A DNA stretch of 64,000 nt from an uncultured Chromatiales bacterium (GTDB taxonomy: Bacteria > Pseudomonadota > Gammaproteobacteria > SZUA-140), in NCBI GenBank assembly GCA_964437335.1, contig CAYTGL010000001.1, forward strand, positions 2,946-66,945, written 5' to 3'. Numbering within the stretch: position 1 is the stretch's first letter; the number at the start of each line of letters is the position of its first letter. The notes under the pieces were generated by a model. That model saw only the letters and a program-made list of their open reading frames with translations. It did not search any database and was not told the DNA's origin. The translations under genes were made by a program, and so were the position numbers. Positions 25,609-45,641 of the stretch are shown here, one piece after another.

Positions 25609-25620
25609 GGCGTTCTCCCT

Positions 25621-26253: not shown

Positions 26254-26666
26254 TGCCCGCTGCTCTCCCTCGTCGCGACCGCGACGTTATTGACGCCGGC
26301 GAGCCGGGCCTGATCGACGACCTGGACGAGCAGGCCGGTGCGCGATTCCTCGTCGGCCAGCACGACGACCGAGCCTTCCGGGTGCTCGGCGTGCAGCCGG
26401 GAGACGTGGCTGCGTACGGTGCGCGGGTCGACGCGCTGGCCGTCGATCCAGACCTCGCCGTCGCGGGTCACGGCGATCAGGATGTTCGCGCGCTCCTGCG
26501 GCATCGCGGTCCGCGCGTCCGGACGATGGACCTCGATGCCGGCCTCTTTGACGAACGACGAGGTCACGACGAAAAAGAGCAGGATCACGAAGATCAGGTC
26601 GATCAGCGGCACCAGGTTGATCGACGGCTCCTCCTGATGCTGGTGGGAATGGGAAAGTCTACTCAT
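26250..26666 (-). CDS. exbD: biopolymer transport protein ExbD/TolR
   Basis: 138 aa. INLVPLIDLIFVILLFFVV signature. Confidence 0.9.
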   Translation of the reverse strand: MSRLSHSHQHQEEPSINLVPLIDLIFVILLFFVVTSSFVKEAGIEVHRPDARTAMPQERANILIAVTRDGEVWIDGQRVDPRTVRSHVSRLHAEHPEGSVVVLADEESRTGLLVQVVDQARLAGVNNVAVATRESSGQ

Positions 26667-27213: not shown

Positions 27214-27222
27214 CGGCCGTTC

Positions 27223-29393: not shown

Positions 29394-29438
29394 ATATGGT
29401 CGGTCTCTCATTTGCTGGTCGTAGTGGAATGAAGCTGT

Positions 29439-29559
29439 AGGGCGAGCGCAAGTGTTATTCGATAGCAGACTCCAAGATCCATGCGAATGATAATGATAAT
29501 AATAGCGCAAGTATCATTCGATAGAAGGCTCCAAGGTCCGGGTCAACGATAATGATCCG
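29439..29559. promoter_or_regulatory. tandem ~59-bp repeat, each unit ending in a Fur-box-like GATAATGAT(AAT) element
   Basis: Unit 1 at 29439-29497 (GCGCAAGTGTTATTCGATAGCAGACTCCAAGATCC...GATAATGATAATAATAG). Unit 2 at 29498-29556 (GCGCAAGTATCATTCGATAGAAGGCTCCAAGGTCC...GATAATGATCC). The Fur consensus begins GATAATGATAATCATTATC. Upstream of the ttpB operon. Confidence 0.45.
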
Positions 29560-29729: not shown

Positions 29730-30437
29730 TCAATCTATATCTATTGTGAAGGTCAGGTTGGCCGACAGCTTTTCAGTATCGGTGTCGGGATGATCCTTCA
29801 GACCGATCCGGTGATAGGCCAGGATGTAATGGAAGCCTTGATCCGGGACCGGCAGCGAGATCCTGCCTTCGCGATTCGTCAAAAACAGGTCGAAAACGCC
29901 GAGCATCTCGAGTTCGGCGCCGGCGAGCGGAGCGCCCTCATACATCACCTGGACTGACAATTCGTCACCCGGTTTAATCCGGAAGGGATTTTCGAGCGGG
30001 ATGATCTCGAGTCGAGCGCCGGTCGGCTTGTTTGCGGCCGGGCTCCAGCCGAGCAATGCCTTGGCGAACATTTTCTGATGCACTGAAGACCGGTAACCAG
30101 GCACCTCGTACTTTGGTTTGTTGACGGCGATCTCATTGGAATCCTCGGTCCAGATGCCGTGGTCGTAGTTGACGGAGACCAATAGGGTATCCGCCTTGGG
30201 GTTGACTACCACCTGGCTGTCTTTCACGCGGTATGCAAGGTCATGGCGTACGCCCTGCTGGTCTATTGCGGCAGCGCTGACGAGTTTGGCAGGGTCGTAT
30301 GATTCAAGCTCGCCCGGGTGGCCGAAAACAAGCATCAGGGTATTCCCTTCGCCCGGGATCAGCCAGACATCGTGGGCGCTGACGGGCAACAGGAGAGCAG
30401 AATTGATAAGTATTAAAAATAACCACTTATAAAACAT
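29730..30437 (-). CDS. DUF4198-domain periplasmic protein (Ni/Co-uptake-associated family), copy 1
   Basis: 235 aa. Signal peptide then HDVWLIPGEG...FGHPGE. Paralogous to ORFs at 40883-41584 and 52773-53552. Confidence 0.8.
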   Translation of the reverse strand: MFYKWLFLILINSALLLPVSAHDVWLIPGEGNTLMLVFGHPGELESYDPAKLVSAAAIDQQGVRHDLAYRVKDSQVVVNPKADTLLVSVNYDHGIWTEDSNEIAVNKPKYEVPGYRSSVHQKMFAKALLGWSPAANKPTGARLEIIPLENPFRIKPGDELSVQVMYEGAPLAGAELEMLGVFDLFLTNREGRISLPVPDQGFHYILAYHRIGLKDHPDTDTEKLSANLTFTIDID

Positions 30438-32700: not shown

Positions 32701-33192
32701 TATTCATTCGCCCCTTTGGTATGGTCATTGGTATCTGTCAATTAGTTCATCAGGCTCCTGTTTATCTCATGGAGACTGAGTAGATAATATTATAACATAA
32801 TAATTAATACTTTTAAATACAGTATGTACCAATATTAATACTGCAACAGCAGATTTGACTTGATTAGCGCCTGTTTCGAATCTACGTACCGGATCTTCTT
32901 TCGCTTCGGAACCTAGTACTTTCGTATGGTCAGTTACAGCGATTCACTACGATCTATGTCATTACATTTAATAAGTTTATTGGCCGCGCACGGTGGCAGT
33001 CATGCGTATTGGACGTGATTCAACCAGCGCTTGTCCGGCTAGCTTCAGCCAGTAATTACGAGAGGATTGCGGATACGACATTACGGTGTGCCGCACGTTG
33101 TTTCTTTGCAACACCTTGGGATACAACAGATGATTCCAACCACCAGCGAGAATCACAACGTCCGTGGGGTGAATAATCGCGATTAGTTTGTG
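32701..33192. repeat. copy 1 of a duplicated ~0.6-kb segment (TBDR leader), homologous to 43680-44195
   Basis: Alignable to the region upstream of TBDR2 along its length, with numerous substitutions and indels. Confidence 0.7.
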
Positions 33193-33318
33193 TTATTTGC
33201 GCCAGAATTCCGGCATCAACAGGACGAGGAGCGTGAAGATCTCGAGACGCCCAAGCAGCACCGCGAGCGCGCACGGCCACTTCGCGGCGGCATTAATGTC
33301 ATGGAATGTCACCGCAAC
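33193..33318 (-). pseudogene. remnant of trkH 3' end (last ~35 codons)
   Basis: FHDINAAAKWPCALAVLLGRLEIFTLLVLLMPEFWRK matches the C-terminus of the full TrkH at 44196-45641 (FHDINPTAKWLCTLAMLLGRLEIFTLLVLLTPEFWRK). Upstream part absent. Confidence 0.65.
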
Positions 33319-33364
33319 CGCGCCGAGGTGACCTATCCTCCGCCTAGGTAGCCAGAATGAGTGA

Positions 33365-34207
33365 TTATTCAGGTCTCCCAAGCTGGGGTGGGAGTTTTTC
33401 CATAAAATATTCAGCCGCTTGCATCAGCGACTTAGTATATGGATGTTTAGGATTGAATATAACCTCATCTCGACTACCAGATTCAACAATCTGGCCCTGA
33501 AACATTACAGCGACTTGACCGCATAACTGGTTTATGACTGCAATATCATGCGATATAAAGAGATAGGTTAAGTCATGTTTGACTTGCAAGTCTTTAAGTA
33601 AATTAACTATTTGTGATTGTATAGATTTGTCGAGCGAGGAGACAGGTTCATCACAAACTACCACTCGCGGATTTGACACGATTGCACGCGCTATACATGC
33701 ACGCTGTCTCTCTCCACCACTTAGCTGATGCGGATACGCATCAAGCAGTCGAAGTGGTAATTCAACATCATCAAATATCCTGATAATCCTTGTCTGTCGT
33801 GCTTTTTTATCGAGTAAAGTAAGGTTACTAAGTGGCTCCTCAATACTTCGCCTTATGGTCATCATCGGGTCCAGCGCCCCATAAGCATCCTGATAAATAA
33901 TCTGGACATCCTTGCGAAATTTTCTCAGCTCTTTTCTACCATAGCGGTCAATCCGCTTACCCATAACAGAAATATACCCTGCAGTGGGTTTCTCTAGCCC
34001 GAGTATTAGACGGGCTAGTGTACTCTTGCCAGATCCGCTCTCTCCGACCAAGCCATAGGCCTCGCCCTGACGAATCTTAAGTGATATGTCGCTTACGGCT
34101 TGTACGCGGGCACTCTGATTCCCAAAATAGCTACCTAAAGTTTGATAGCTTTTGGACAAGCTGAGGATTTGTACTGCAGGCTCTGCCCTATCCAACATTC
34201 TCATCAA
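33365..34207 (-). CDS. ABC transporter ATP-binding protein (OppF/DppF/NikE-like)
   Basis: Walker A GESGSGKST, signature LSGGERQR, Walker B. Low-GC codon usage. Confidence 0.9.
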   Translation of the reverse strand: MMRMLDRAEPAVQILSLSKSYQTLGSYFGNQSARVQAVSDISLKIRQGEAYGLVGESGSGKSTLARLILGLEKPTAGYISVMGKRIDRYGRKELRKFRKDVQIIYQDAYGALDPMMTIRRSIEEPLSNLTLLDKKARQTRIIRIFDDVELPLRLLDAYPHQLSGGERQRACIARAIVSNPRVVVCDEPVSSLDKSIQSQIVNLLKDLQVKHDLTYLFISHDIAVINQLCGQVAVMFQGQIVESGSRDEVIFNPKHPYTKSLMQAAEYFMEKLPPQLGRPE

Positions 34208-34216
34208 TCTGTAAAC

Positions 34217-35071
34217 CTACAATTGATTTCTTGCATAGGTATTAGAATTATTCTCAGTACCATAGCCTAATTGAGACTCCCGATTCAGCCTGGGCATTGC
34301 GTTCAACAGGGTCCTGGTATATGTGTCTCGGGGAGTGTTTAGAACCCTGTCAAGGTGATCATAGTCAACAAACCTACCACGATGCATGACCGCGATATGG
34401 CTCACAAGTCTGCTGACAAAACCAATATCATGACTGATAATAAGCATAGATAAATCAGTGTCTCTATGAATCTCCTCGAGGAGTTTTGTAATCTCTACTT
34501 GATTCAATAGATCAAGTGAGGAGGTTGGCTCATCAGCTATCAATAGTTTCGGCTCGAGTACAAGCGCAGCCGCTAATGCTACCCGCTGACACATACCACC
34601 ACTGAGTTCGAAGGCGTAACTATTCATTACCTCTTTTGCGCGGGGCATTTTCACGCGATCAAGAGCATTTAATATTTTCATGTGAGCTTCGCCTTGCGAT
34701 ATCGGATAATGCGTACGCAATACATGCTCTATCTGGCGCCCAATTCTTGCACATGGATTGAAGCTATTTTGCGGCGACTGGAAAATCATGCCGATTTCTT
34801 TCCCTCGAATAGCTTCCCAATATTTATCACTCCTGCTCTGCAGTGGCTCGCCTTGATATTTCACTGTACCGTTTATTATCTGCCCAGGACGATCAAGCAG
34901 GTAAAGAAGTGCAAGAGCCAAGGTGCTCTTTCCAGATCCGCTCTCACCTACGACACCCAATATTTCACCGGTGTTCAGCGATAAACTCACGTCATTCACT
35001 GCACGCAGTCTTCCGCTAGCTAGGATGTAATCTACACTAAGATGTTCGATTTCCAGAATTGGTGCTTTCAT
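34217..35071 (-). CDS. ABC transporter ATP-binding protein (OppD/DppD/NikD-like)
   Basis: Walker A GESGSGKST, signature LSGGMCQRV. Low GC. Confidence 0.9.
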   Translation of the reverse strand: MKAPILEIEHLSVDYILASGRLRAVNDVSLSLNTGEILGVVGESGSGKSTLALALLYLLDRPGQIINGTVKYQGEPLQSRSDKYWEAIRGKEIGMIFQSPQNSFNPCARIGRQIEHVLRTHYPISQGEAHMKILNALDRVKMPRAKEVMNSYAFELSGGMCQRVALAAALVLEPKLLIADEPTSSLDLLNQVEITKLLEEIHRDTDLSMLIISHDIGFVSRLVSHIAVMHRGRFVDYDHLDRVLNTPRDTYTRTLLNAMPRLNRESQLGYGTENNSNTYARNQL

Positions 35072-35956
35072 TTAATTTTCTGCTCTATTCCTAGGGTCGA
35101 TGCCATCACGCAACCCGTCACCCACGAGGTTGATTGACATTACCGTGAGCATAATCATTACCCCAGGGAAAATGACGTTCCACCACGCCCCACTCATGGC
35201 AGCGCTTAGACCATTACCCAGAAGATTTCCCCAGCTGGACACTGTTGAGGGGACACCTAAATTGATAAAGCTTAATGTTGCTTCCAGGGTAATCGCCTGA
35301 CCAATACTAACGGTTAATATCACAAGCAATGGCCCCATCAGATTAGGCAGGATATGATGCATAATCAATTTCAGCACTCCACATCCAGCTGTGATAGATG
35401 CGCGGATAAAATCGGTTTCCATCAATCGTCTGCACTCAGTACGAACAACGCGGGCGACGCCCATCCAGCTAACCAGCGCGATCGATAACGTAATTTTAGT
35501 GAGACTCAGTTCTCCAGATGCTTGTATCAGGATTACATACAAAATCACTGGTATGGAAAGAATCGTATCCAGTACCTGCATCAGTACTTGATCCAGCCAG
35601 CGCGGACCTAACCCGCTTAATAACCCATAGAATATCCCGGCAAATCCAGCAATTATGATCGCCATCAATCCAACTAGCAGTGATAATCTGCCACCCAACA
35701 TGACCCTATCAAAAAGATCTCTTCCCAGATGATCTGTTCCGAACCAATGCATACTTGAGGGAGGTGCATACATCATAGCGGTATCTGTCATGCTATTCCC
35801 GACGTTCACCAATGGATAAAGTATACAAAGTGCACTTATTATTACTAAAAGCACAAGTCCCATCATGGCTAAGCGATGGGAACGTAACGTTAATACTATC
35901 CACGGCTTCCGCACCGCTATCGGCCCCCGTTCTATGAGCGATTTTTCAGCGGACAT
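35072..35956 (-). CDS. ABC transporter permease (OppC/DppC/NikC-like)
   Basis: 294 aa, six TM helices, BPD_transp_1 pattern. Confidence 0.9.
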   Translation of the reverse strand: MSAEKSLIERGPIAVRKPWIVLTLRSHRLAMMGLVLLVIISALCILYPLVNVGNSMTDTAMMYAPPSSMHWFGTDHLGRDLFDRVMLGGRLSLLVGLMAIIIAGFAGIFYGLLSGLGPRWLDQVLMQVLDTILSIPVILYVILIQASGELSLTKITLSIALVSWMGVARVVRTECRRLMETDFIRASITAGCGVLKLIMHHILPNLMGPLLVILTVSIGQAITLEATLSFINLGVPSTVSSWGNLLGNGLSAAMSGAWWNVIFPGVMIMLTVMSINLVGDGLRDGIDPRNRAEN

Positions 35957-36911
35957 ATTGTCTCCGCAGTCTAGGATCGAATGCGGCTATTAAGCAGTCA
36001 GCTAGCAGGTTACCCGCGATTATCAAGATGCCTGTGACTAGAGTGCATGCCATTAGTACAGGATAGTTCCGTCCAATTGCGCTCTGTAAAAACAATCGCC
36101 CTATACCCGGCCATCCAAACACCCATTCAACGACATAGACACTACCAATTAGTAGTGGCAATGAAAAACCAACCCACGTAATAAAGGGTGTGAGCGCATT
36201 TGGCATTAAATGACGAAATATAAGATCGTATTTTCTTATTCCTCTTGAACGCGCGGCACGAATGTAATCCATGGTAATAGTATCGCGTATACTACCTCTC
36301 ATAAGGCGCAGATAAGGACCTAACTGAGTCAACACGATGGTAGCCACAGGCAATACAAGGTGGGAGGCCAAATCGTAAAAATTATCATTGATGCCAATCG
36401 TTGACATACCCGAAGATGGAAAAAGTCCCAAGCCAACGGAAAACATCAGGATTAACATCAGACCAAGCCAGAATGGGGGAATGGAAAAGCTGACTAGTGC
36501 GATTCCACTGATTGAATAATCAATCGTGGTGTGAGGATTCGCTCCGGCTAAGTACCCAAGATAAATGCCTAATATGATAATCAATACCCAGGCACTTCCA
36601 ACCAGAATCAGGGTATTTTTCAACGAGGACAACACAACACCTTGAACCTTCCTACCATCCTTTAAGGAATAACCCCAATCACCCTGAACCATGCGATTCA
36701 GCCACAAACCATATTGAACAGGTAGCGGTTGGTCTAGCCCCAAATTATGTCGAACACGCTCATAGTCATCGAGTGTCATATTCTCACGCCCGCCTACAAG
36801 ACTGGGAACAGGATCGCCGGGCATCGATTTGATTATTACAAATGCTAATAGACTTATCAGCAACAGTTGGGGTATTACCCCGAGCAGTCGAGTTGCGATA
36901 AATCTAATCAT
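35946..36911 (-). CDS. ABC transporter permease (OppB/DppB/NikB-like)
   Basis: 321 aa, six TM helices. N-terminal MIRFIATRLLGVIPQLL typical of DppB. Confidence 0.9.
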   Translation of the reverse strand: MIRFIATRLLGVIPQLLLISLLAFVIIKSMPGDPVPSLVGGRENMTLDDYERVRHNLGLDQPLPVQYGLWLNRMVQGDWGYSLKDGRKVQGVVLSSLKNTLILVGSAWVLIIILGIYLGYLAGANPHTTIDYSISGIALVSFSIPPFWLGLMLILMFSVGLGLFPSSGMSTIGINDNFYDLASHLVLPVATIVLTQLGPYLRLMRGSIRDTITMDYIRAARSRGIRKYDLIFRHLMPNALTPFITWVGFSLPLLIGSVYVVEWVFGWPGIGRLFLQSAIGRNYPVLMACTLVTGILIIAGNLLADCLIAAFDPRLRRQYVR

Positions 36912-38500
36912 CGGGAGTTTCCTGGCAATTTATCCCACTTCTCAACATTCCACAGGGGGCTCGATCCATGCCCCATGACTCGTTGCTCGAAGCCGCTGAA
37001 CCCCTTTCGCACTGCGTAGATATGCTTGAGATAGACCAGATAGTTCAGCGGTGGATCATTGACCATTTCTCGCTGTATCTCTTGGTAGAGAGCCTTACGT
37101 TTTTCTGGATCTATCTCCTCACGGGCCTTCTTTAGTAAGATATCCACTTTTTCATTTTTATAACCGCTGTAGTTCATTCCGGAAAATTGCAAATCGCTTG
37201 AAAAATACTTGTAGAGGTCATCGTCTGGATCTCCGGGATACCCCAATCCAAGTATTATTGAAGAAACATCGCGAATATTAAACGAGGCGAAGTCTTTGAT
37301 CTGTACTTGCACATCAAAGCCCGCACGCTTGAGTTGCTCAGCCAGCAGAATAGCGAGATCCTGTCTTTCAGGTTCATTGCTGGGGGCTACTAACGCAATC
37401 GAAAAACGCTCGCCATTTTTCTGGTAAATTCCATCACTGCCGCGCACCCACCCGGCCTCCTTCATCAAGCTCTCTGCCTTGCCGGGATTATTATCATGAT
37501 GAGACATCTCCGGGAATGAAATATCATGCATCTGTAGCGGTCCATATGCAGGTACTCCATAACCCAGGAGCGCGCCGGTTACGAGCGCCTTGCGATCCGT
37601 CGCGTATTGAAGTGCCTGGCGAACCTTAATATCCCGAAAAATAGGGTAGCGATGATTAGTCATCATCGCTCGATAATCTGTTGAGTTAACCGTCTCTATT
37701 GTGAAATTATCGGCCCCTTTCAACGCCTGAACCTGCTTGGGTTTAATCTCTGTAATATCGACCTCTCCATTTTTCAATTGAACCAGTCGAACATTAGAGT
37801 CCGGTATAAACTTGTAGACTAATCGATCCAGTTTGGGCCGCCCATCGTAAAATTGGGAATTGGCCTCGAACACCATATATTCACCGCGCTTCCACACACT
37901 TAATTTGAATGGTCCGGTTCCAATAGGGCTTTCATAGTTGAATGGATCAGTATTGAAATCCTTGCCTTCCAAACGGTGACGCGGAATCATGCCAATTTTT
38001 AGCTTACTGGGAAGGGCGGCGAGTGGCCTGTGCAGAACGATACGAATCGTGAGCGGATCGATAGCATCTACTCTCTTGATCTCCTCAATCAGTTTTCTGG
38101 CGCCACTACTATTTTTTGGATCAAGTATCGCCTCGATTGTGAACTTGACATCATCTGCGGTAAATTCAACACCGTCGTGCCATTTAATATTTGGCTTTAG
38201 GATAATGATGTATTCCAGGCCATCTGCAGACATGGCCCAGGATTTTGCCATGTCAACCACGACACGGTTATCTTTGTCCAGTTTGAATAAGCCTCTGAAA
38301 AGCGCCATATCGGAATCGGGATGTTGATGCCCTGCCACAGGGTTCAGCCATTCAGGTTCTGATGGCATTGCAATAGTCAGAGTCTTTATTGCCGATCTAT
38401 TCTCATCTTTTTCTGTCTGACCACAACTCAACAGGATAAAAGTGGCGGCGAGCAGGAAGCTGATGTTTCTGTACTTAACGGCATAATATTTTAGTGTCAT
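36908..38500 (-). CDS. family-5 solute-binding protein (Opp/Dpp/NikA type), predicted lipoprotein
   Basis: SBP_bac_5 fold. Start placed at MTLKYYAVKYRNISFLLAATFILLSCGQ, which has a lipobox (LLSC). The ORF track's TTG start at 38572 is less likely. Low GC. Confidence 0.85.
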   Translation of the reverse strand: MTLKYYAVKYRNISFLLAATFILLSCGQTEKDENRSAIKTLTIAMPSEPEWLNPVAGHQHPDSDMALFRGLFKLDKDNRVVVDMAKSWAMSADGLEYIIILKPNIKWHDGVEFTADDVKFTIEAILDPKNSSGARKLIEEIKRVDAIDPLTIRIVLHRPLAALPSKLKIGMIPRHRLEGKDFNTDPFNYESPIGTGPFKLSVWKRGEYMVFEANSQFYDGRPKLDRLVYKFIPDSNVRLVQLKNGEVDITEIKPKQVQALKGADNFTIETVNSTDYRAMMTNHRYPIFRDIKVRQALQYATDRKALVTGALLGYGVPAYGPLQMHDISFPEMSHHDNNPGKAESLMKEAGWVRGSDGIYQKNGERFSIALVAPSNEPERQDLAILLAEQLKRAGFDVQVQIKDFASFNIRDVSSIILGLGYPGDPDDDLYKYFSSDLQFSGMNYSGYKNEKVDILLKKAREEIDPEKRKALYQEIQREMVNDPPLNYLVYLKHIYAVRKGFSGFEQRVMGHGSSPLWNVEKWDKLPGNSR

Positions 38501-38550
38501 AATGCAATACATTTCTCCAGATACCGGGTTTATGTATTTATCGATACATA

Positions 38551-38597
38551 TGTGACCGTTCTGGCTGATCAAAATCAGCCAGAACGGTCACACAGGA
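38551..38597 (-). terminator. 18-bp perfect hairpin downstream of TBDR3
   Basis: GTGACCGTTCTGGCTGAT-caaa-ATCAGCCAGAACGGTCAC lies ~20 nt after the TBDR3 stop. Overlaps the alternative TTG start region of the SBP gene. Confidence 0.5.
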
Positions 38598-38614
38598 TCT
38601 ACAGCGACTCAGAA

Positions 38615-40627
38615 TTAGCCGAAGAAGTACTTAAAGCCAACCTCGGCTTCTAGCTTCGGAATGGGCGCATAGAAAACGCCGCCGAAATCGAACATGGGTT
38701 CGGCAGTATCTTCATCCGGTTGATATACAAATGCAGCATAGGTGGACCACCGGTTCTTGTCGAAACTAACCTTGCCCATGTAACGCCAGAACGGATCACG
38801 CATCGTGCTTCCAGTTGAGTTGAGCGGGGTATCGCCAAGCTGCTGACCGTATAGATCGACAACAACGCGAGCATTGTCCATTAACGGTTTGAACCAGGTT
38901 CCGCCGACTGTCAGATAGTTTTCAGGTAGCCCGGATAGTTTATTAGCATCCGGCGAACTTGGTGTTTTATTTTTTGCATCAACTGCGGAATATGTAACAA
39001 ACAAGGATAAGGCACTGGTGGGATTGTAGGTTAATATCATGTCAAAACCGTTTCTTTCAATTTCGCCTACGTTGACTGCTTCCTCAGCGATGACATTAAT
39101 CTCGTCTTCTGTGGTACTCCAATAGTAGTTGAAATCTAAGCTCACTTGCGGATTAAATAAGACATTAAATCCGACATCAGTGCTAACTATCTTGGGCATA
39201 TTCAAGTCGAAGTTAGCATTTCCTGTTACAGGAGAAATCTCTGATACTTCCGGGGTACGGAATCCTTGACCGCTATTGGCATAAATTACAATGGTATCAC
39301 TTGGTGACCAGGTTATTCCAAGCTTAGGACTTAGTAAATCGGCATTTCCTGTTCCAGAGTTAGCAGGCGTAATATTATTAGTGATGTCCGAATCATAAGT
39401 GTCATACCGCAAACCACCATGAAGTTTTACTCGTTCTAGAATCTGATATTGAGCTTGGGCAAACAGTCCAATGCTTAACTCATTAATATCCCAATCACTG
39501 TTTACAGCTCCGGTTTTGTCACGATCGAGGGTGGGAAAGCTTTGAAGTATCATGTCATCGTAACGTCCATCTGTACCGACAGTAATAAGATATTTGTTTC
39601 CGGGTAAAAAGTTGTAAAGGACGTTCCATCCAAAATAGCTATTCTCATTATGATTCAAGCTTTGTGGGCTGTTGAACGATGAATACCGATTCAATTCCTT
39701 ATCAGATAGATACACTGTGCCATGCCAACCAGACTCGCCAGGAGACGAGTCGTAGCGTATTGCGAGATTTATCGCGTTACTGTCGCCACCGTCTGACGGT
39801 TGGGAAGACCCTATTGGTATTGTAGCCGCTGTCCGTGGGATCACACCATTGATCACATCATCCAGCAATATATACCCGGGCGCATCCCATTCCTCATTAA
39901 CAAGGTGTGCCACAATCGACACATCACCTCCCATGGATGCAATTGTTGCCTTATTATAAAGGTTGTAGCGTGTGTCCTCGCTGTTATCCCTATAGCCTTC
40001 CTTGTCGCGGAACTCATACATTAAAAATGGTGTGACATTACCATGAGTTTCATTATAAGTCCCAACGGCGCGCATATACTTGTAACTGCCAATTTCCGCA
40101 CCTGCACTCGAACCAGCATTGCGTGATTTTGTTATTATGTTAACGGCACCACACAATGCGAAGTTCCCATATAAAGCTGATATGGGTCCCTTGATAATTT
40201 CAATTCGCTCGACCATCTCCGGCGTAATCCAGGCAAAATCACCGTAACCATGAGCCTGACCATGATTTGGCATGTTCATAGGTACGCCATCTACATGTAC
40301 AGCGATTTGATTTGTATGGCTCCCGGATGTACAACCCCGCATTGCCAAACCGTCTGCTATACCACCCTGGCCATAAGGTTGTGTATTCATACCGGGTTGT
40401 TTTCGAAACAGATCGAGATAGTTCGTTACTGGCATAGTATCAATCTGCTGAGAGTCGATGATTAGAACAGATCCTGGCAAGGCTTCTGTAGATGTTGAGA
40501 TAGCCGCCTTTTCTTCTCCTCCTACAACAGTCATGGCTGGCAGAGTTTCTACGTCAGCAGAATATGCAGTTGAAAATATCACAGCAGACATAACCAAAAT
40601 GCATGCTAGAAAAAGTTTTTGCGACAT
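38615..40627 (-). CDS. TonB-dependent outer-membrane receptor (TBDR3), low GC
   Basis: 670 aa. Signal peptide, plug domain, barrel ending ...FKYFFG. Confidence 0.9.
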   Translation of the reverse strand: MSQKLFLACILVMSAVIFSTAYSADVETLPAMTVVGGEEKAAISTSTEALPGSVLIIDSQQIDTMPVTNYLDLFRKQPGMNTQPYGQGGIADGLAMRGCTSGSHTNQIAVHVDGVPMNMPNHGQAHGYGDFAWITPEMVERIEIIKGPISALYGNFALCGAVNIITKSRNAGSSAGAEIGSYKYMRAVGTYNETHGNVTPFLMYEFRDKEGYRDNSEDTRYNLYNKATIASMGGDVSIVAHLVNEEWDAPGYILLDDVINGVIPRTAATIPIGSSQPSDGGDSNAINLAIRYDSSPGESGWHGTVYLSDKELNRYSSFNSPQSLNHNENSYFGWNVLYNFLPGNKYLITVGTDGRYDDMILQSFPTLDRDKTGAVNSDWDINELSIGLFAQAQYQILERVKLHGGLRYDTYDSDITNNITPANSGTGNADLLSPKLGITWSPSDTIVIYANSGQGFRTPEVSEISPVTGNANFDLNMPKIVSTDVGFNVLFNPQVSLDFNYYWSTTEDEINVIAEEAVNVGEIERNGFDMILTYNPTSALSLFVTYSAVDAKNKTPSSPDANKLSGLPENYLTVGGTWFKPLMDNARVVVDLYGQQLGDTPLNSTGSTMRDPFWRYMGKVSFDKNRWSTYAAFVYQPDEDTAEPMFDFGGVFYAPIPKLEAEVGFKYFFG

Positions 40628-40786
40628 TATTCTCCCCTCACAGTTATTTTCCTGTAACTGTTAATCGTGAACGAGCGTTCAATTTCCCGCATGACTCATT
40701 CGCCCCCTTGTATGGTTATTGGTATCTGTCAATCAGTTCATCAGGCTCAGCTTCCTATCTAATAAGAGATTGAGTCAGAGGTGGCG

Positions 40787-40818
40787 GGCCACCCGGCGGG
40801 GGAGAGGATCCGCCGGAT
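40787..40818. repeat. palindromic element CCACCCGGCGG-N10-CCGCCGGATGG (copy 2)
   Basis: Near-identical to 30516-30547. Lies between DUF4198-2 stop and TBDR3 start. Confidence 0.5.
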
Positions 40819-40882
40819 GGCTTACGCCGGGCACTGCATTTATTTCGTTCAGACCTACAGGGTCATCAACGAAATTCTCCTG

Positions 40883-41584
40883 TTAACGGAAGAAGGTGAG
40901 ATTGGTCTCCAGCGCTAGTGTGTCAGCGTCAGGGTGATTTTTCAGGGTTTCCTTATGCCTTGCCAGGATGTACTGAAAACTGTCCGCTGATATCGGTAGC
41001 GAGGCCTTGCCGTCGGCATCGGTCTTGTGCAGCGTTTCGTCGCCAAGTATCTCGATCTCTGCGCCTGAGAGAGGCTTTGATTTGTACAGCAACTGTACGG
41101 GCAGAAGTTCACCGGGCTTCAATGCAAGAGGGTCCTTGAGCGGCAGGATTTCAAAGTCCGCGCCGACCGGCTTGCCTGCTGTCTGACTCCAGGAGACGAT
41201 CATCTTGTTGAATTTCATGGAATGCATTGATGCCTTGTAATTTGGCACTTCCCGCTTTGAAACATTGAAATATTTTTCATTCTGGTCTTCGGTCCAAAAC
41301 CCATTGTCGAAATCCGTGATGACCAGTGACAACCCGCCAGGAAATTCAGCGAACAGCTGTTCATTGTGCACATGAGTCTTGATCTTGCCTCTGGCACCGT
41401 CTTTGTTGATGCCGGTTACTGATTTTGCTTTAGCCGGTTCATAGGGTTCGGGTTCGCCGGGATGGCCATAAACAAGCCGATAATTTTCCCCGTCGGGCAC
41501 GAACCAGACATCATGTGCCGATGCAGTGGCGGCAAATACGATCGATAAGGCTGTCAGTATGAGAAATATTCGTAATATTTTCAT
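40883..41584 (-). CDS. DUF4198-domain periplasmic protein, copy 2
   Basis: 233 aa, signal peptide, HDVWFVPDGENYRLVYGHPGEPEPYEP. Paralog of 29730-30437. Confidence 0.8.
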   Translation of the reverse strand: MKILRIFLILTALSIVFAATASAHDVWFVPDGENYRLVYGHPGEPEPYEPAKAKSVTGINKDGARGKIKTHVHNEQLFAEFPGGLSLVITDFDNGFWTEDQNEKYFNVSKREVPNYKASMHSMKFNKMIVSWSQTAGKPVGADFEILPLKDPLALKPGELLPVQLLYKSKPLSGAEIEILGDETLHKTDADGKASLPISADSFQYILARHKETLKNHPDADTLALETNLTFFR

Positions 41585-41659: not shown

Positions 41660-43679
41660 CTACATCGATATCGAAATACCCATCATGAAATTGATTGGTG
41701 GGCGCGGTGTATAGAGGTCTTCGAAAGCTGCTTCGGAGTACACCTCATCCGTCAGGTTGTTGATATCGAGAAACCAGCGCGCATACTTGCCCTGATCAAG
41801 CGGCACGGCGTAGAACACGCTGGCGTCTAGGACATCGAAGCCGTCATATTTGACGGTATTCGCAGCGTTGAGATAGGAAGATCCAATGGAGCGCCAGCGC
41901 AGACTACCGCCCCAGCCGGACGGAGGTGCGTAGTTGAGGCTGATCGTTACAATATGATCCGCTGATCCCTCGATCTCATTACCAACCAGTGTAGCATCCG
42001 GATTGCTTAGGATCTCGCTATCCGGCAGCGCAAAGATTGCGGAGACGCTGAAGTTGTTTATTGCCTGCGGGAAGTACCGGACCTCACCCTCCAGACCGCT
42101 GCGACGTGTTTTGCCGACATTGCGGAACTGCGATGATCCCGGCGGATCCTCGAGAATCTCGTCGGAGCTGTCAAGAATGTAGTAGGCGAGATCCAGGTAC
42201 CATTGCGGGCTCGGCGTGCCGTTGATGCCCACTTCGTATTGCCAGTACTGGATTGTGTCAACATTGATGGTAGGATCGTATTTCGACTCGCCATCGGGTA
42301 ATCCGAAACCGTCGGCGATGCTGCCACGCAACTCCCAGTTTTCATGGAACGCCGAACGCACACCGAGCTTCGGGCTGATGTGGTCATAACTGTTATCTTC
42401 GTTGAAAGGCGTTCCGCTGGGATCCCGGTTGAGATAGGAACCATTGTAGTTGTCATAGCGAACCCCAAGGGTCGGACGGAATAGCGGACTGATATCCATA
42501 TCGATCTGTCCGTAGATCGATGCGGTTTGGCTGTCGAAGACTCGATCTTCGATCTGGTCGATGCGCACCCGATTGCTGGTGTCCCAGCGCAGCCAGTCGG
42601 TCTCTTCGGTGTAATATTCGAAGCCCACTACCCAGCTGCTGGGAATATTGAAAAGGGTCCGGGAACCATTCAGGCTGCCGCCGGTGGCAATGGCATTGCG
42701 GCCGTAAAAGCGTTCGGTCTGGCCGCCGGGGTCATAGCCGAACTTGGCGAAGCGAGTAAAGTCATTGCTGGTGCCATAGAGAAACAACAGCATTCTGAGA
42801 TCATCGTCAACGTCATAAAACCAGTCAAGACGCTGGTTATAATACTGCTTGTGCCCGCCGTCGTTCTCGGCATTGATGGCCTGCTGTCTGCGGACGCTTT
42901 CGTCCCCGCTCTTGAACTGTTCTTCAGGAATATAGCCCGGGGCATCCCACTGACCGCCATAACCACGCATCGTCAGTACCACTTCGGAACGGTCACTGAC
43001 ATCGTAGCCGAGCCGCAGCGAGGCATTGGTTTTAGTGAAGCGCGAGTTCTCGCGCCAGCCTTCGCTGTCATAGGCCTGGAGCGCCAAGTTGGCCTTGAAT
43101 GGACCGATCTCTCTGCCCATGGCTGCCTGGGCATCAAAGGTTTTGTACATGCCGCCGGAGAGATAGGCGTCGTTATAGTTACCGCCCTTGCGGGTCGTGA
43201 AGGCCAGCACACCGCCGCGGGCATAGTTGCCGTACAGTGCCGACCGGACCTCTGTAGACAGTCAGGGAATCGATCTCGAGCGGTATGATGCTGTTGGTGT
43301 CGGCATATCCGTCGGCATGGGATTCGCCTTCGTTGAGACTGATGCCATCGAGGGTGATTGCGGCGTCACTGCCGTGTCCGCCTGTCTGGAACCCTCGTAT
43401 CGTAAACTGATCGGCGACGCCACCTTGCTGGTAGACGCCCAGATCAAGCCCCGGGACTTCTTCAACCAAGCGTAGCGATTGATCCCAGGAACGGGAACGG
43501 ATCACGTCTGAACCTATGGTGTTGACACTGAACGAGCGATCGGCCTCCCTCATGCCTTCACCCTTTACGGTAATTTTATCGAGATCGACGTTGTCCGCCA
43601 GTGCGGCGCCTCCCGCTGCTGCCCCGATTCCGTATAAGATCGCGGCTAAGACGCTTCTCCTCACTAGGTGATTAATCAT
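41660..43679 (-). pseudogene. TonB-dependent receptor (TBDR2) disrupted by a frameshift near 43235
   Basis: N-terminal 166-aa ORF (43179-43679) and C-terminal 516-aa ORF (41660-43210) are collinear with TBDR1. They are out of frame at ...VYRGPVG|ALYGNYARGGVLAFTTRKGG, where TBDR1 has the in-frame motif GPVSPLYGNFARGG. Confidence 0.7.
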
Positions 43680-44195
43680 TTCTCATTCGCTCCCTAGAAT
43701 GATTATTGGTTATTCGTCAAACAGTTCATCAGGATCAGTCTCCTGCCATGGAAACTGAGTTCGTAATATGTTAACGTAATATTTATTACTTAGACAAGCG
43801 GTATGTATTATTAAGAATACTGCATCCTAGATTCGCCAAGTTGGTTTCTGTTTCAAATCGACGTATCGATCTTCCGCCGCTTCAGAACCCAATACTCTCG
43901 GCCGGTTCAGAATCTAGTACTTTCGTATGTTCCGTTACAGCAGTTCACTTTGGTCCATATCATTATATTCTATAAGTTTATTATTCCAGGCACGGTGACC
44001 GTCATGCGCATTGGACGCGAAATAAGCAGCGCTTCCCCGGCTCGCTTCAGGCAGTAATTACGGGAGAATTACGGATTCGACATTTCGGTGTGCTGTATGT
44101 TGTTCCTATACAACACAGTGGCGTATCACTGATGATTCGAACCGCCAGCGGGAATCACGCCACCCGATGGGGCGAATGATCGCGATATATTTGTA
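43680..44195 (-). promoter_or_regulatory. conserved long 5' leader of TBDR2; candidate cis-regulatory RNA with cobalamin-riboswitch-like motifs
   Basis: Transcript-sense sequence contains GGGTGGCGTGATTCCCGCTGGCGG...GCCACTGTG...GCCTGAAGCGAGCCGGGGAAGCGC. These are reminiscent of the B12 aptamer core (GGTG.A..TCCCGC...GCCACTG...GGGAAG). Not validated. Confidence 0.3.
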
Positions 44196-45641
44196 TTATT
44201 TGCGCCAGAATTCCGGCGTCAGCAATACCAGCAGCGTGAAGATCTCAAGTCGCCCGAGCAGCATCGCGAGTGTGCACAACCATTTCGCGGTCGGGTTGAT
44301 ATCGTGGAAGGTGGAAGCGACCTCGCCCAGGCCGGGACCGAGGTTGTTCAGGCTCGTCGCGACCGCGCCGAACGCGGTGACCTGGTCGACGCCGGTCGCC
44401 ATCAGGGCAAGCACCAGTGCGGCGAAGATCATGATGTAGATCGAAAAGAAACTCCAGATCGCGTCCAGCACGAGTTTTGGTACCGGACGGTCGCCGATCT
44501 TGATCGGCCGGACCAGTTGCGGGTGAATCAGGCGCTGCAGCTCGCGAATGCCGACCTTGGCAAGCACGATGATCCGGATCGCCTTGATTCCGCCTGACGT
44601 CGACCCGGCGCAACCACCGAAGAAGCTGACAAAGATCAGCAGCATTGGCAGGCCCAGCGGCCAGACCGCGAAATTCCCGGTGCTGAAGCCGGTTGTCGTG
44701 ATCACCGAGACGACCTGGAAGGCCCCGTGGCGCAGGGAATGGGCCCATGTCGGGTATTGCTCGCCGAGCCATAGGAACATCCCGGTCAGCAGCGCGAATC
44801 CGAGTACGGTCAGCAGAAATACCCGCGACTGAGTGTCGTGCCAGTAGACCGAGGGACTCGGTCCACGCAGCGCCATGAAGTGAACACTGAAACTCAACGA
44901 GCCTATCAGCATGAACACGATCGCAATGATCTCGATGGCGAGGTTGTCGAAATGGCCGATGCTTGCATCGTGGGTCGATAAACCGCCGGTTGAGACGGTC
45001 GACATGCTGTGGGCAATTGCGTCGAACAGCGACATGCCGGCTAGCCAGTACGCGGCCGCACAGGTCACGGTCAGCGCGAAATAGATGATCAGCATGAAGC
45101 GTGCGGTCTGGGCAATGCGCGGGGTCAGCCTCTCGTTCTTCATCGGTCCCGGGGTCTCGGCCAGGTAGAGCTGCATGCCACCGACGCCGAGCATCGGCAG
45201 GATCGCGACCGCGAGCACGATTACGCCGAGGCCGCCAAACCACTGGAGCTGCTGGCGGTAATACAGGATCGAGAGCGGCAGGTTGTCGATGCCGACGATC
45301 GCGGTTGCGCCGGTCGTCGTGAAGCCGGAGACCGCCTCGAACACGGCGTCGGTCAATATGAGATCGGTGCCAAGCAGCAGCGGGATGCTACCGAGTGTCC
45401 CGAGCAGTACCCAGAACAGCGAGACGATGAGAAAGACTTCGCGATTGTAGAGATTGCCACGATGCCGACGCGTCGGCAGCCACAGCAACAGCCCGGGCAG
45501 CGCGAGAATCAGCACGCTTTCCAGGAAAATGATTAACTGACCGTCATTTCCCCACGCGGCAAGCAACGCTGGCGGGATCAGCGTCAGGCTGAACAGTAAC
45601 AAAAACAGGCCGACGAGACGGATGACGAAGGCAGGCCGCAT
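44196..45641 (-). CDS. trkH: Trk-type potassium uptake protein TrkH
   Basis: 481 aa polytopic membrane protein with TrkH/KtrB fold. Confidence 0.9.
   Translation of the reverse strand: MRPAFVIRLVGLFLLLFSLTLIPPALLAAWGNDGQLIIFLESVLILALPGLLLWLPTRRHRGNLYNREVFLIVSLFWVLLGTLGSIPLLLGTDLILTDAVFEAVSGFTTTGATAIVGIDNLPLSILYYRQQLQWFGGLGVIVLAVAILPMLGVGGMQLYLAETPGPMKNERLTPRIAQTARFMLIIYFALTVTCAAAYWLAGMSLFDAIAHSMSTVSTGGLSTHDASIGHFDNLAIEIIAIVFMLIGSLSFSVHFMALRGPSPSVYWHDTQSRVFLLTVLGFALLTGMFLWLGEQYPTWAHSLRHGAFQVVSVITTTGFSTGNFAVWPLGLPMLLIFVSFFGGCAGSTSGGIKAIRIIVLAKVGIRELQRLIHPQLVRPIKIGDRPVPKLVLDAIWSFFSIYIMIFAALVLALMATGVDQVTAFGAVATSLNNLGPGLGEVASTFHDINPTAKWLCTLAMLLGRLEIFTLLVLLTPEFWRK

Follow-up and report, generated by a model that had tools for sequence, protein, structure and literature searches.

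The locus considered here raises the question of how a block of low-GC genes came to lie among GC-rich neighbours in an uncultured Chromatiales bacterium, and of what those genes import. Across the 64-kb stretch of DNA that was analysed (the window), GC content drops to 0.40-0.48 over about 33.3-40.7 kb, the flanks having 0.61-0.69, and the 7.4-kb block at 33330-40689 (the cassette) has a GC of 0.45 compared with ~0.63 for the host. Its six genes have GC3 values of 0.395-0.488, against 0.787 +/- 0.048 in 38 host genes (z -6.2 to -8.2; Mann-Whitney p = 1.4e-7), and its tetranucleotide profile correlates with the rest of the window at r = -0.10, where host segments of the same size give 0.98. 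Thus GC, GC3 and tetranucleotide profiles all set the cassette apart, in agreement with an earlier sequence-only reading, which had described lower GC and a different codon usage. Relatives L004 and L005 carry trkH-TBDR arrays that lack the cassette. In loci L003 and L006-L009 the GC of the homologous operon equals that of its flanks, so there the operon is native. The cassette is foreign DNA inserted into a resident metal-uptake locus, a solid and fairly ordinary case of gene transfer.

The six genes are intact and all lie on the minus strand (Table 1). Stops and starts within the operon overlap or abut, the start of the NikB/OppB-type permease gene overlapping the SBP stop and the NikC/OppC-type gene overlapping its neighbour by 11 nt, and the genes are translationally coupled. 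The Pfam matches bear out the earlier description of a TBDR with a Nik/Opp-type ABC importer. Among NCBIfam models, the first permease scored best with Opp2B 'nickel ABC transporter permease' (267 bits, short of the 350-bit cutoff), the second matched Opp4C and Opp2C (both under cutoff), and the ATPases matched NikD TIGR02770 (234 bits; cutoff 319) and, as top model, NikE TIGR02769 (262 bits; cutoff 333); no Nik component of the cassette reached an equivalog cutoff. Neither nikR nor a classical NikR box nor a nickel enzyme was found in the window.

Table 1. Features of the cassette, its junctions and the resident locus (window coordinates).
Feature	Coordinates	Strand	Evidence or remark
TBDR-L, 670 aa, signal peptide + Plug + barrel	38615..40627	-	Plug 1.5e-22, TonB_dep_Rec_b-barrel 6.9e-32 (Pfam); GC3 0.41
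SBP_bac_5 lipoprotein, NikZ-like 'GHQH / single-His' variant, 530 aa	36908..38500	-	PF00496 3.4e-86
NikB/OppB-type permease, 321 aa	35946..36911	-	BPD_transp_1 1.7e-38 + BPD_transp_1_N
NikC/OppC-type permease, 294 aa	35072..35956	-	BPD_transp_1 8.9e-24 + OppC_N
NikD/OppD-type ATPase, 284 aa	34217..35071	-	ABC_tran 6.2e-30, partial oligo_HPY
NikE/OppF-type ATPase, 280 aa, last cassette gene	33365..34207	-	ABC_tran 1.2e-34
Right junction: third resident-5'UTR copy, promoter-less, with RBS, + uORF	40627..40748	-	repeat family D5
Left junction: orphan 135-nt trkH 3' fragment, in frame	33193..33328	-	aligned to real trkH end
Leader A, non-coding	32701..33192	-	72% identical to leader B
TBDR-A, resident receptor, 710 aa	30568..32700	-	Pfam; GC3 0.86
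DUF4198-A, putative periplasmic metal-binding protein	29730..30437	-	49% identity to L005 DUF4198 ORF; mature N-terminus HDVW
DUF4198-B, 233 aa, just upstream of cassette	40883..41584	-	PF10670 9.5e-24; GC3 0.57
TBDR-B, TBDR-A paralog (about 44% aa), split Plug/barrel ORFs	41660..43679	-	1-nt frameshift near 43242
Leader B + true trkH 3' end	43691..44331	-	palindrome GGTAT-N12-ATACT at 43800-43821
GC-rich hairpin between DUF4198-B and right junction	40778..40830		repeat family D10
TonB cluster: DUF3450, large ExbB, ExbB, ExbD, TonB, TPR protein	24415..29510	-	Pfam + ORF list

The cassette had been placed exactly between two copies of a duplicated leader, which proved correct on one side only. 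There it is flanked by the ~640-nt leader copy A (33328->32701), whose orphan trkH fragment begins 36 nt past the final stop codon of the cassette. The other side has a third copy of the resident 5'UTR (40748->40696), 54 nt long and 92.6% identical to the TBDR-A UTR of leader A; the full leader copy B (44331->43691) is 3 kb past the right junction, beyond the frameshifted TBDR and a DUF4198 gene. In the third 5'UTR copy an ATG at 40692 opens a 21-codon uORF (translation MREIERSFTINSYRKITVRGE), and its TAA stop overlaps the ATG of TBDR-L (TAATG). Between the orphan and real trkH 3' ends pS is 0.61 and pN 0.098 (ratio 0.16), and the presence of the orphan fragment indicates that the insertion joined DNA of two diverged lineages. 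It probably replaced whatever came after DUF4198-B, which in relative L005 is a TBDR.

The resident locus in which the cassette lies has the make-up trkH-TBDR-DUF4198-TonB. TBDR-A has orthologs of 75-78% identity in the Chromatiales MAGs L004 and L005, and belongs to the same family as the TBDRs that partner GHQH operons (see below) in L006, L007, L009 and L016. The L005 ORF that matches DUF4198-A is a 67% ortholog of the Pfam-confirmed DUF4198-B. A tblastn search with the L005 ortholog placed the frame switch of TBDR-B at 43242/43243, the independent Logan contig L001 has the identical frameshift, and TBDR-B is probably a pseudogene. The hairpin recurs (81%) at 30505-30557, between TBDR-A and DUF4198-A. 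The TonB cluster, whose ExbD (26250-26666) was assigned from position and size only, is presumed to energise all three TBDRs.

Within the cassette no promoter or operator of its own was recognisable. Upstream of it lie, in order, leader B, the frameshifted TBDR-B, DUF4198-B, the hairpin and the promoter-less 5'UTR copy; with no promoter and a position behind resident genes, the cassette is probably expressed by read-through from a resident metal-responsive promoter. In leader A a palindrome, AGTAT-N12-ATACT (32821-32842), immediately precedes the best sigma-70-like promoter (-35 at 32817, -10 TATAAT at 32794-32789), which the 5'UTR follows. This palindrome also precedes TBDR-B, the L002 cassette and, in L003, the TBDR next to nikR, as it does TBDR-A, and was seen nowhere else in the loci; we regard it as a candidate operator, and NikR as a possible regulator to bind it.

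Judged by sequence and predicted fold, the SBP is NikZ-like, resembling Campylobacter jejuni NikZ (CjNikZ) and CcNikZ-II and not OppA, E. coli NikA or CntA. Its best sequence matches in the PDB were 8efz (5e-110) and 4oet (4.9e-101), and its predicted model (pLDDT 91) matched best by Foldseek to 4oeu, CjNikZ-Ni(L-His) (TM 0.87/0.93, 38% identity). The v-loop His and chelator-binding Arg defined for CjNikZ (bioRxiv 10.1101/2022.10.03.510666) are conserved, His26 corresponding to H60 and Arg344 to R379. Throughout the SBP clade H58, Q59, H60, R379 and H511 are invariant, but the GHHG double-His prong of the family (HH-prong) has lost one His to a one-residue deletion (GH-G), and the N-terminal v-loop has a second His (GHQH, invariant in all ~60 closest homologs). 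The clade, whose few named members come from Nitrosospira, Thiomicrorhabdus and Sinobacteraceae, is an uncharacterised branch of an established family of nickel-binding proteins; as the HH-prong is not intact, its specificity could differ from that of NikZ. The lipobox of the SBP (LLSC, Cys26 of the 530-aa form) had been taken as a mark of Gram-positive or otherwise distant origin. However, about 55 of 59 clade members carry one, so the lipobox supports neither a Gram-positive nor a distant origin.

A TBDR directly adjoins the operon of this clade in 11 of 16 loci, the window included, and lies within about 2.2 kb of it in L003. The gene nikR adjoins the homologous operon in L003 and L010. Perfect GTATGA-N15-TCATAC boxes, of the GTATGA-N15/16-TCATAC type that we take to be the NikR operator consensus, occur in L003 and L014, ~170 nt from a znuA-like gene versus ~730 nt from the SBP gene, and L008 has a palindromic variant. 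A CsoR/RcnR-family repressor and a CDF gene lie by the operon in L006. TBDR-L itself has a 70% ortholog in L002, its next relatives being 40-45% identical and adjoining DUF4198 genes and ECF Ni/Co importers; in this family DUF4198 always comes next. In L022 and L024 the relatives are clustered with CbiM-PDGLE-CbiQ-ATPase and TonB/ExbBD genes, and no cobalamin riboswitch was found upstream of either cluster. Among solved structures TBDR-L had no close relative, the best matches (~1e-17) being plug-only ones to YncD, PqqU and CirA.

Several other explanations were weighed. Chimeric joining of the low-GC block, or of the A-side, from two organisms in an apparently metagenome-derived genome is one; the index 53818 in the name of the Logan contig points to a metagenomic run, the divergence between the two trkH ends is what orthologs from two lineages would show, and the left junction at 33329 was seen in this assembly only, since contig L001 ends at 34238. 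However, L001 comes from a different assembler and matches the window at 100% identity over 34238-45524, thereby reproducing the right junction (cassette, B module, trkH) base for base; the order B...A is the same in L005, and L002 has the same cassette beside another trkH 3' end. Moreover, repeat copies that share only 72-93% identity offer no exact repeat at which an assembler could have joined sequences wrongly, and we consider an artefact very improbable. Harder still to credit is an ordinary Opp/Dpp/App permease for oligopeptides or dipeptides lying beside a TBDR by chance. The family-5 SBP, the OppC_N and oligo_HPY domains, and Bacillus subtilis AppA as third-best PDB match (4e-63) would fit it, but NikZ matches better than AppA by 40-50 orders of magnitude, the putative metal-ligand residues are invariant in the clade, and linkage to TBDR, nikR and DUF4198 is consistent across loci. 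Nor does the SBP cluster with canonical OppA, a possibility that the sequence-only reading had raised (OppA model 63 bits, cutoff 947; DppA model 124 bits, cutoff 1005).

As to the substrate, sites with three His are also typical of Zn, and the predicted SBP site has three. With architecture and horizontal origin unchanged, cobalt or zinc as the physiological substrate would suit the B12-related genes beside the homologous operons of L007 (metE and riboswitch-controlled nrdAB), L008 (nrdAB) and L009 (BtuR/BtuF-like/CbiA-CobQ), the CbiZ/CobN genes near TBDR-L relatives, the znuABC-like operon that runs divergently in L003 and L014, and the single PDB match of TBDR-A, a weak one (9e-11) to the Zn/Ni-pseudopaline receptor CntO. 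In addition, NikZ-type proteins bind Co, Cu and Zn in vitro at micromolar level (bioRxiv 10.1101/2022.10.03.510666), and Zcp, a Neisseria DUF4198 protein, binds Zn and is Zur-regulated (PMC12663993). Against this, no cobalamin riboswitch preceded the cassette or its homologs in about 20 loci, where such elements were readily detected before neighbouring genes; the sole metal-regulator signals physically linked to the operon are nikR and NikR-type boxes, the Ni chaperone domain CooT lies beside the TBDR-L relative in L022, and the closest characterised proteins are Ni binders, so that we regard cobalt or zinc as unlikely, if well short of negligible. Import-only piracy of an opine-type metallophore (staphylopine/pseudopaline class) or another foreign-made dedicated nickelophore, a candidate in the sequence-only reading, now seems improbable. 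A TBDR before the importer does suggest a chelated substrate, too large or scarce for porins, the window holds no biosynthesis or export genes, as that reading had noted, and the chelator-binding Arg, which in CjNikZ binds the carboxylate of a co-chelator (free His or oxalate) held together with Ni (bioRxiv 10.1101/2022.10.03.510666), is invariant in the clade. However, the CntA model reached 128 bits where the cutoff is 800, with CntC, CntD and CntF far under theirs; CntA structures ranked ~35th by Foldseek (20-21% identity), behind NikZ in first place; TBDR-L had no CntO match among PDB structures; no cntL/cntM-type genes adjoined the about 20 homologous loci sampled; and CcNikZ-II and CjNikZ bind Ni with no added chelator (bioRxiv 10.1101/2022.10.03.510666). 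Of the earlier proposal, then, metal import, most likely of nickel, is the part best supported, and the opine metallophore is the part to be given up; since the co-chelator Arg is invariant, a complex of Ni with a small chelator is possible.

Our preferred reading, at a probability of about 0.6, is that the six genes form an operon, acquired by horizontal transfer, which takes up a transition metal with high affinity, and that this metal is most probably Ni(II). In this nickel-uptake scheme, Ni, free or on a small carboxylate or imidazole chelator such as L-His, would cross the outer membrane via TBDR-L, with energy from the resident TonB-ExbB-ExbD cluster, which lies 4 kb downstream. The lipid-anchored SBP would take it through H511 and the two His of the GHQH loop (H58, H60), R379 holding the co-chelator, and the NikBC-like permeases and NikDE-like ATPases would pass it on to the cytoplasm. 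The DUF4198 proteins encoded nearby are probably periplasmic Ni buffers or shuttles.

Among known systems, the opine-metallophore ones (Staphylococcus aureus CntABCDF/CntKLM/CntE; Pseudomonas aeruginosa CntOLMI) are alike in having a family-5 SBP importer or a TBDR (CntO) and in handling chelated Ni/Co/Zn, but the cassette has no CntO-like receptor and the window no cntL/M/I/E genes. E. coli NikABCDE/NikR shares the ABC architecture, and nikR or NikR-type boxes accompany the homologous operons of L003, L010 and L014, whereas the SBP shares no more than about 21-22% identity with NikA (TIGR02294 167 bits; cutoff 393) and the window lacks both nikR and the classical box; to our knowledge the E. 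coli nik operon has no dedicated TBDR. Two flanking DUF4198 genes with TBDR neighbours, and an N-terminal His (HDVW...) after cleavage, recall Zcp and the Ideonella protein IsDUF4198, which binds Ni2+ with a Kd of 18 nM and is encoded beside TonB receptors and NikR_C regulators (PMC12537917), although here these genes belong to the resident locus and not to the cassette. The NikZ importers of C. jejuni (4OET/4OEU/4OEV) and Clostridium carboxidivorans (CcNikZ-II, 8EFZ) have the same family-5 SBP, two permeases and two ATPases, and share the chelator-binding Arg and v-loop His with the cassette SBP; the cassette clade differs in its single-His prong, its GHQH v-loop and, usually, a TBDR joined to the operon. 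By its proposed mode of action this last feature is like TonB-dependent Ni uptake, known from Helicobacter pylori FrpB4/FecA3 and H. mustelae NikH and predicted for the NikR-regulated TBDTs Bll6948, Daro_3944 and Rgel01002199 (PMC11247825), in which a Ni-dedicated TBDR energised by TonB-ExbBD feeds an inner-membrane importer.

When base composition was computed, the departure from the flanks that the sequence-only reading had noticed was seen in every measure. Between about 33.3 and 40.7 kb the GC content is 0.40-0.48 as against 0.61-0.69 outside, and the six genes of this block (the cassette), which encode a TonB-dependent receptor (TBDR-L), a family-5 substrate-binding lipoprotein (SBP), two permeases and two ATPases, have GC3 values of 0.395-0.488 compared to 0.787 +/- 0.048 for 38 host genes of the window (z -6.2 to -8.2; Mann-Whitney p = 1.4e-7). 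The tetranucleotide profile of the cassette correlates with the rest of the window at r = -0.10, the value for equal-length host segments being 0.98. The genes share one strand and are tightly packed, with stops and starts that overlap or abut. No integrase or transposase ORF was found in or beside the cassette, no tRNA anywhere in the window, and no exact flanking direct repeats; the repeats that do flank it are diverged resident sequences (72-93% identical). On the basis of its composition and its absence from two related MAGs (L004 and L005; L numbers denote database loci used for comparison), the cassette is a 7.4-kb piece of horizontally acquired DNA, an island that in itself would not surprise a specialist. 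Elsewhere the window holds ordinary host genes, among them a flagellar export/motor cluster (fliP, fliR, flhB, flhA, flhF, flhG, fliA, motA, motB) followed by a gene for a response-regulator GGDEF-EAL protein.

Positions of the features discussed, in window coordinates
Feature	Position	Strand	Remarks
TBDR-L	40627->38615	-	cassette gene, intact
SBP	38500->36908	-	cassette gene, intact
Permeases (two)	36911->35946, 35956->35072	-	cassette genes, intact
ATPases (two)	35071->34217, 34207->33365	-	cassette genes, intact
Third 5'UTR copy and uORF	40627-40748	-	promoter-less; resident-type RBS, ATG at 40692
Orphan trkH 3' fragment	33193-33328 (real end 44196-44331)	-	135 nt, still in frame
trkH	45641->44196	-	
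Leader A	32701-33192	-	
Leader A promoter	32817->32789	-	
Leader A palindrome	32821-32842		
Leader B	43691-44195	-	
Leader B palindrome	43800-43821		
TBDR-B	41660-43679	-	
GC-rich inverted repeat CCGGCGG...CCGCCGG	30505-30557, 40778-40830		copies 81% identical
ffs (SRP RNA)	46012-46108	+	
dnaX	46150-47742	+	
Third DUF4198 gene	52773-53552	-	259 aa
Cytochrome c7-like protein	53718-54401	-	
HMA_2 protein	62687-63229		
Flagellar cluster	1109-11250	+	
GGDEF-EAL protein	12063-13922	-	

Among solved structures, the best sequence matches of the SBP (phmmer) were Clostridium carboxidivorans NikZ-II (CcNikZ-II; 8efz, 5e-110) and Campylobacter jejuni NikZ (CjNikZ; 4oet/4oeu/4oev, 4.9e-101), with weaker matches to B. 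subtilis AppA (4e-63), E. coli NikA (~1e-27) and S. aureus CntA (~1e-26). In a Foldseek search with the AlphaFold model of the SBP (pLDDT 91), CjNikZ-Ni(L-His) and CcNikZ-II took ranks 1-4 (TM 0.87-0.96, 38% identity) and CntA came near rank 35. None of the curated NCBIfam equivalog cutoffs was reached, either by the SBP (bits/cutoff: NikA TIGR02294 167/393, Opp5A_nikA 195/600, CntA NF047575 128/800, OppA 63/947, DppA 124/1005) or by the permeases and ATPases with the Nik models (NikB TIGR02789 240/447, NikC TIGR02790 172/358, NikD TIGR02770 234/319, NikE TIGR02769 262/333). By these scores the SBP does not cluster with canonical OppA. The opine-metallophore architecture of the staphylopine/pseudopaline kind that had been proposed for the cassette also had to be given up: in addition to the low score and rank of CntA, the CntC (131/440), CntD (225/380) and CntF (227/385) models stayed under their cutoffs, and no cntL or cntM gene was present among the window ORFs.

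Diep et al. (bioRxiv 10.1101/2022.10.03.510666) described NikZ-type nickel binders by a GHHG HH-prong, a conserved Arg and a variable loop. In that work the HH-prong, a C-terminal double His, is the proposed signature (H480/H481 in CjNikZ, H511/H512 in CcNikZ-II), the Arg (R344 and R379, respectively) holds a co-chelator or anion, and the loop gives a metal ligand (His26 in CjNikZ). The SBP has the family-5 fold with CjNikZ and CcNikZ-II as its nearest neighbours, an Arg aligned within SNEPERQD (the R379 column is invariant), and the loop AGHQHPD, in which H60 aligns with CjNikZ His26 and H58 is extra. It does not have the HH-prong, as the corresponding segment (MG-HGSS) keeps a single His through a one-residue deletion. 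In all of the ~60 closest homologs (51-78% identity; with the SBP, the GHQH clade) the loop is invariant (NP[VI]AGHQH[AP]D) and the C-terminal motif is G-HG with a single His, whereas the next clade (35-45% identity; Clostridia, Desulfotomaculales, CjNikZ) has the GHHG prong and one or no loop His. Since the loop gains a His and the prong loses one, the predicted number of His ligands stays at three, with one apparently shifted from the C-terminal prong to the N-terminal loop.

The lipobox of the SBP (LLSC, Cys26 of the 530-aa form, the form that NCBI also annotates) had been taken as a mark of Gram-positive or otherwise distant origin. However, about 55 of 59 GHQH-clade members have one, as do the Clostridial proteins, and the few clade members that bear names (Nitrosospira, Thiomicrorhabdus, Sinobacteraceae) are Proteobacteria. 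The lipobox is thus a family trait and no sign of Gram-positive ancestry.

Fifteen further GHQH-clade SBP loci were sampled (16 with the window). The five-gene ABC unit is constant in them, and a TBDR is directly adjacent in 11 of the 16 (the window, L002, L006-L012, L016 and L017); in Nitrosospira sp. Nl5 (L003) the TBDR lies ~2.2 kb from the operon, and the remaining loci are truncated or without TBDR. Only L002 among the sampled loci has an ortholog of TBDR-L (TBDR 70%, SBP 78%). In L006, L007, L009 and L016 the partner belongs to the family of the two resident receptors of the window, TBDR-A and TBDR-B (38-41% to A, 44-50% to the barrel of B), so that the resident receptors and the incoming importer correspond to two halves of one pathway that are encoded together elsewhere. 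The operon of L003 and L006-L009 matches its flanks in GC content and is therefore native there. The L002 cassette, the only other one of the TBDR-L type, ends at the 3' end of a convergent trkH (8474-8536) and has kdpF on its other side; the adjacency to trkH may be fortuitous, or it may reflect a preference for the trkH end as a site.

The window locus is flanked by ffs and dnaX. A native GHQH operon, accompanied by TonB-ExbBD and an A/B-type TBDR, is likewise found near ffs-dnaX in L016 (19140-21090), and ffs is close to trkH in L004 (1210-1304) and L005 (2472-2567). With these neighbours shared, the chromosomal neighbourhood looks conserved, and the lineage of the window could formerly have had a native version of its own here.

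Nickel, already the candidate substrate of the sequence-only reading, is the best supported one, with a probability that we put at about 0.6; most of the remainder goes to Co or Zn. A nikR gene (RHH_1 + NikR_C) stands beside the operon in L003 and L010. Perfect GTATGA-N15-TCATAC boxes occur in L003 (9247-9273) and L014 (5337-5363), where they lie in the ~920 nt that separate the GHQH-SBP operon from a divergent znuABC-like operon. As both boxes are nearer to the znuA-like gene than to the SBP operon, this 'Znu-like' transporter may itself be nickel-regulated. In L008 a perfect GTAGGA-N16-TCCTAC lies about 130 nt upstream of the TBDR, in L005 a NikR-type box with one mismatch lies just upstream of the TBDR-A ortholog, and L006 has a CsoR/RcnR-family repressor and a CDF exporter. 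The nikR genes and NikR-type boxes of the clade favour nickel, as do the NikZ-like SBP and the linkage of TBDR-L relatives to DUF4198 and ECF-type genes described below, but the B12-related neighbours in L007-L009 and the divergent znuABC-like operon in L003 and L014 are signals to the contrary. No cobalamin riboswitch was detected in the window or before the homologous operons, although riboswitches of this class were found before neighbouring genes in the same loci.

TBDR-L has the plug (PF07715, 1.5e-22) and barrel (PF00593, 6.9e-32) of a TBDR and a signal-peptide-like N-terminus (MSQKLFLACILVMSAVIFSTAYSA). Its similarity to solved receptors is at the level of the plug only (YncD, PqqU, CirA, ~1e-17), and no match to CntO was obtained. 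Beyond L002, it has relatives of 40-45% identity in assemblies of low GC content (0.38-0.41), those with names being Thermodesulfovibrionales, Caldimicrobium, Ca. Kryptonium and hot-spring metagenome entries. A DUF4198 gene immediately follows the TBDR-L relative in all three contexts examined, and two of these clusters also contain CbiM-PDGLE-CbiQ-ATPase genes (an ECF-type Ni/Co importer) with TonB-ExbB-ExbD, that of L022 including CooT. Where a cobalamin riboswitch occurs in these loci, it lies before the unit that comes next (a second TBDR plus CbiZ) and not before the TBDR-L-like unit. Upstream of the TBDR-L-like genes in L022 and L024 (~8800-9000), tandem AAAGTTCAA-like repeats give way to a conserved GC-rich stretch (CAGGGAGACCC...CCCTGCCC); neither had a match in Rfam.

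DUF4198 proteins have recently been shown to be periplasmic metal binders (PMC12537917, PMC12663993): IsDUF4198 binds Ni2+ with a Kd of 18 nM via its N-terminal His and belongs to a family that neighbours TonB receptors and NikR_C regulators (PMC12537917), and Neisseria Zcp binds Zn (PMC12663993). The two resident DUF4198 proteins of the window, DUF4198-A and DUF4198-B, both have the mature N-terminus HDVW... A third DUF4198 gene (Pfam 2.9e-38) lies ~9 kb from the main locus and is adjoined by a gene for a cytochrome c7-like protein; a heavy-metal-associated HMA_2 protein is also encoded in the window.

The surroundings of the cassette are a resident metal-uptake locus. Along the minus strand, trkH is followed by a long non-coding leader (leader B), TBDR-B, DUF4198-B, a GC-rich hairpin, a 54-nt copy of the 5'UTR and the cassette, and then by the orphan 3' fragment of trkH, the second leader (leader A), TBDR-A, the hairpin, DUF4198-A and a complete TonB system (DUF3450, two ExbB genes, ExbD, TonB and a TPR protein). 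The hairpin corresponds to the inverted repeat, one copy of which lies after TBDR-A and the other after DUF4198-B, and may represent either a REP-like element or an intercistronic stem-loop. Leaders A and B with the trkH ends can be aligned over about 650 nt. The view that the cassette sits between the duplicated leaders was correct for one side, which leader A borders, but the other border is the short third UTR copy (40748->40696, 93% identical to the UTR of A), and leader B is 3 kb away.

The two leaders might have arisen by a simple tandem duplication, but this can be ruled out, as the orphan trkH fragment has diverged from the real trkH end under purifying selection (pS 0.61, pN 0.098, ratio 0.16; mostly synonymous differences). 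The low ratio implies that most of the divergence accumulated while both copies were functional, and hence in two lineages. Tandem duplication is also contradicted by the receptors, since TBDR-A and TBDR-B (about 44% identical in amino acids) are old paralogs, each with a separate ortholog in the two 'uncultured Chromatiales' MAGs. L005 has trkH, orthologs of TBDR-B (74-86%) and DUF4198-B (67%), a third TBDR and a TBDR-A ortholog (75%), and in L004 trkH is directly followed by the TBDR-A ortholog (78%). The locus is thus a recombinational mosaic of two diverged lineages and not a recent internal duplication. TBDR-A is native-looking (GC3 0.86) and the B module intermediate in composition (GC3 0.57-0.67, tetranucleotide r 0.71). 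Plausibly, a segment of DNA from a related lineage, running from the trkH end and leader B through TBDR-B and DUF4198-B to the cassette, entered a resident trkH-leader A-TBDR-A locus by recombination.

Over 34238-45524 the window is matched at 100% identity by an independent Logan contig, which reproduces the B module with its TBDR-B frameshift as well as the right junction; the left junction at 33329 lies outside this span. The frameshift, of 1 nt near 43242 and just past the plug domain, probably makes TBDR-B a pseudogene, in whose place TBDR-L may now serve. Leaders A and B share 72% identity in their non-coding parts, compared to ~39% at synonymous sites of the adjacent trkH fragment, which suggests functional constraint or gene conversion. 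Searches of L004 and L005 (blastn-short) revealed no homologs of the leaders or UTR, and neither leader has an obvious small ORF or an Rfam match.

Leader A contains the best sigma-70-like promoter of the window (TTTAAA-17-TGnTATAAT), with the palindrome AGTAT-N12-ATACT directly upstream of its -35; the palindrome of leader B differs from it by one mismatch. In ~137 kb of other loci the exact palindrome was found only twice, ~100 nt upstream of the cassette TBDR of L002 (839-860) and 60-80 nt upstream of a nikR-adjacent TBDR-A-like receptor in L003 (17566-17587). Its occurrences, in three genomes, are confined to sites upstream of this system's TBDR genes. We regard the palindrome as a candidate operator for a shared regulon; NikR might bind it, with the qualification that the spacing differs from that of the classical box and the sample is small. 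A tblastn search of the window with the L003 NikR gave only noise, and no GTATGA-N15-17-TCATAC with <=2 mismatches was found near the window locus. At the Rfam gathering threshold the SRP RNA was the only hit in the whole window, and at E<=1 no riboswitch or known RNA was detected in the leaders or junction (32600-33450 and 40550-44500); RNAalifold of the three 5'UTR copies gave -4.9 kcal/mol with no supporting covariation.

The cassette has no AGTAT-N12-ATACT of its own and no predicted promoter in 40628-40880. The ATG of the third UTR copy opens a 21-codon ORF (MREIERSFTINSYRKITVRGE) whose TAA stop overlaps the ATG of TBDR-L (TAATG), which could provide translational coupling or be a mere scar of recombination. 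On the simplest reading, a resident TBDR gene would have been exchanged, from its start codon on, for the incoming DNA, and transcripts from leader B would now read through TBDR-B, DUF4198-B and the hairpin into the cassette. A copy of this hairpin lies inside the A operon, after TBDR-A and before DUF4198-A, and strong termination by the copy ahead of the cassette is therefore unlikely.

Urease, hydrogenase, CODH and other enzymes require nickel, which must be scavenged, and to our knowledge only a few receptors are known for its passage across the Gram-negative outer membrane. The window and roughly 20 related loci tie the NikZ-like SBP clade, several TBDR lineages and the Ni/Zn-binding DUF4198 proteins into what would be one pathway, assembled repeatedly and horizontally exchangeable. 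A wider reading, which we offer tentatively and consider rather improbable as a whole, is that lipoprotein SBPs with the GHQH loop and a single C-terminal His form an unrecognised, widespread family of TBDR-coupled metal importers in which one ligand has moved from prong to loop, and that the window shows such a module plugging into a resident regulon by start-codon-exact replacement of a TBDR, the resident 5'UTR, RBS and ATG being kept as a coupled uORF. The ligand move, if true, could change which metals are selected, or it could make possible a transfer from the receptor or DUF4198 to a membrane-tethered SBP. The locus would also illustrate how a resident promoter and UTR can capture a foreign operon in nature, and it offers residues (H58, H60, H511 and R379) and a candidate operator that can be tested. 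As the general function could be guessed from standard annotation ('peptide/nickel transport system'), the advance is incremental; its modest interest lies in the altered binding site, in the modular exchange of receptor lineages and in the capture by the resident UTR at exactly the start codon.

The known two-membrane nickel routes are functionally alike, in that a TonB-energised TBDR is combined with a Nik-type ABC importer. By the curated thresholds, the cassette falls outside E. coli NikA, the opine (Cnt) systems and Opp/Dpp. With the NikZ family, represented by CjNikZ and CcNikZ-II, the SBP shares the fold, the Arg and the loop His, but it differs in the HH-prong. With the other two sequence features present, we class the predicted importer as a variant of the NikZ type: NikZ-like, lipoprotein-based and TBDR-coupled, with an apparently relocated His ligand.
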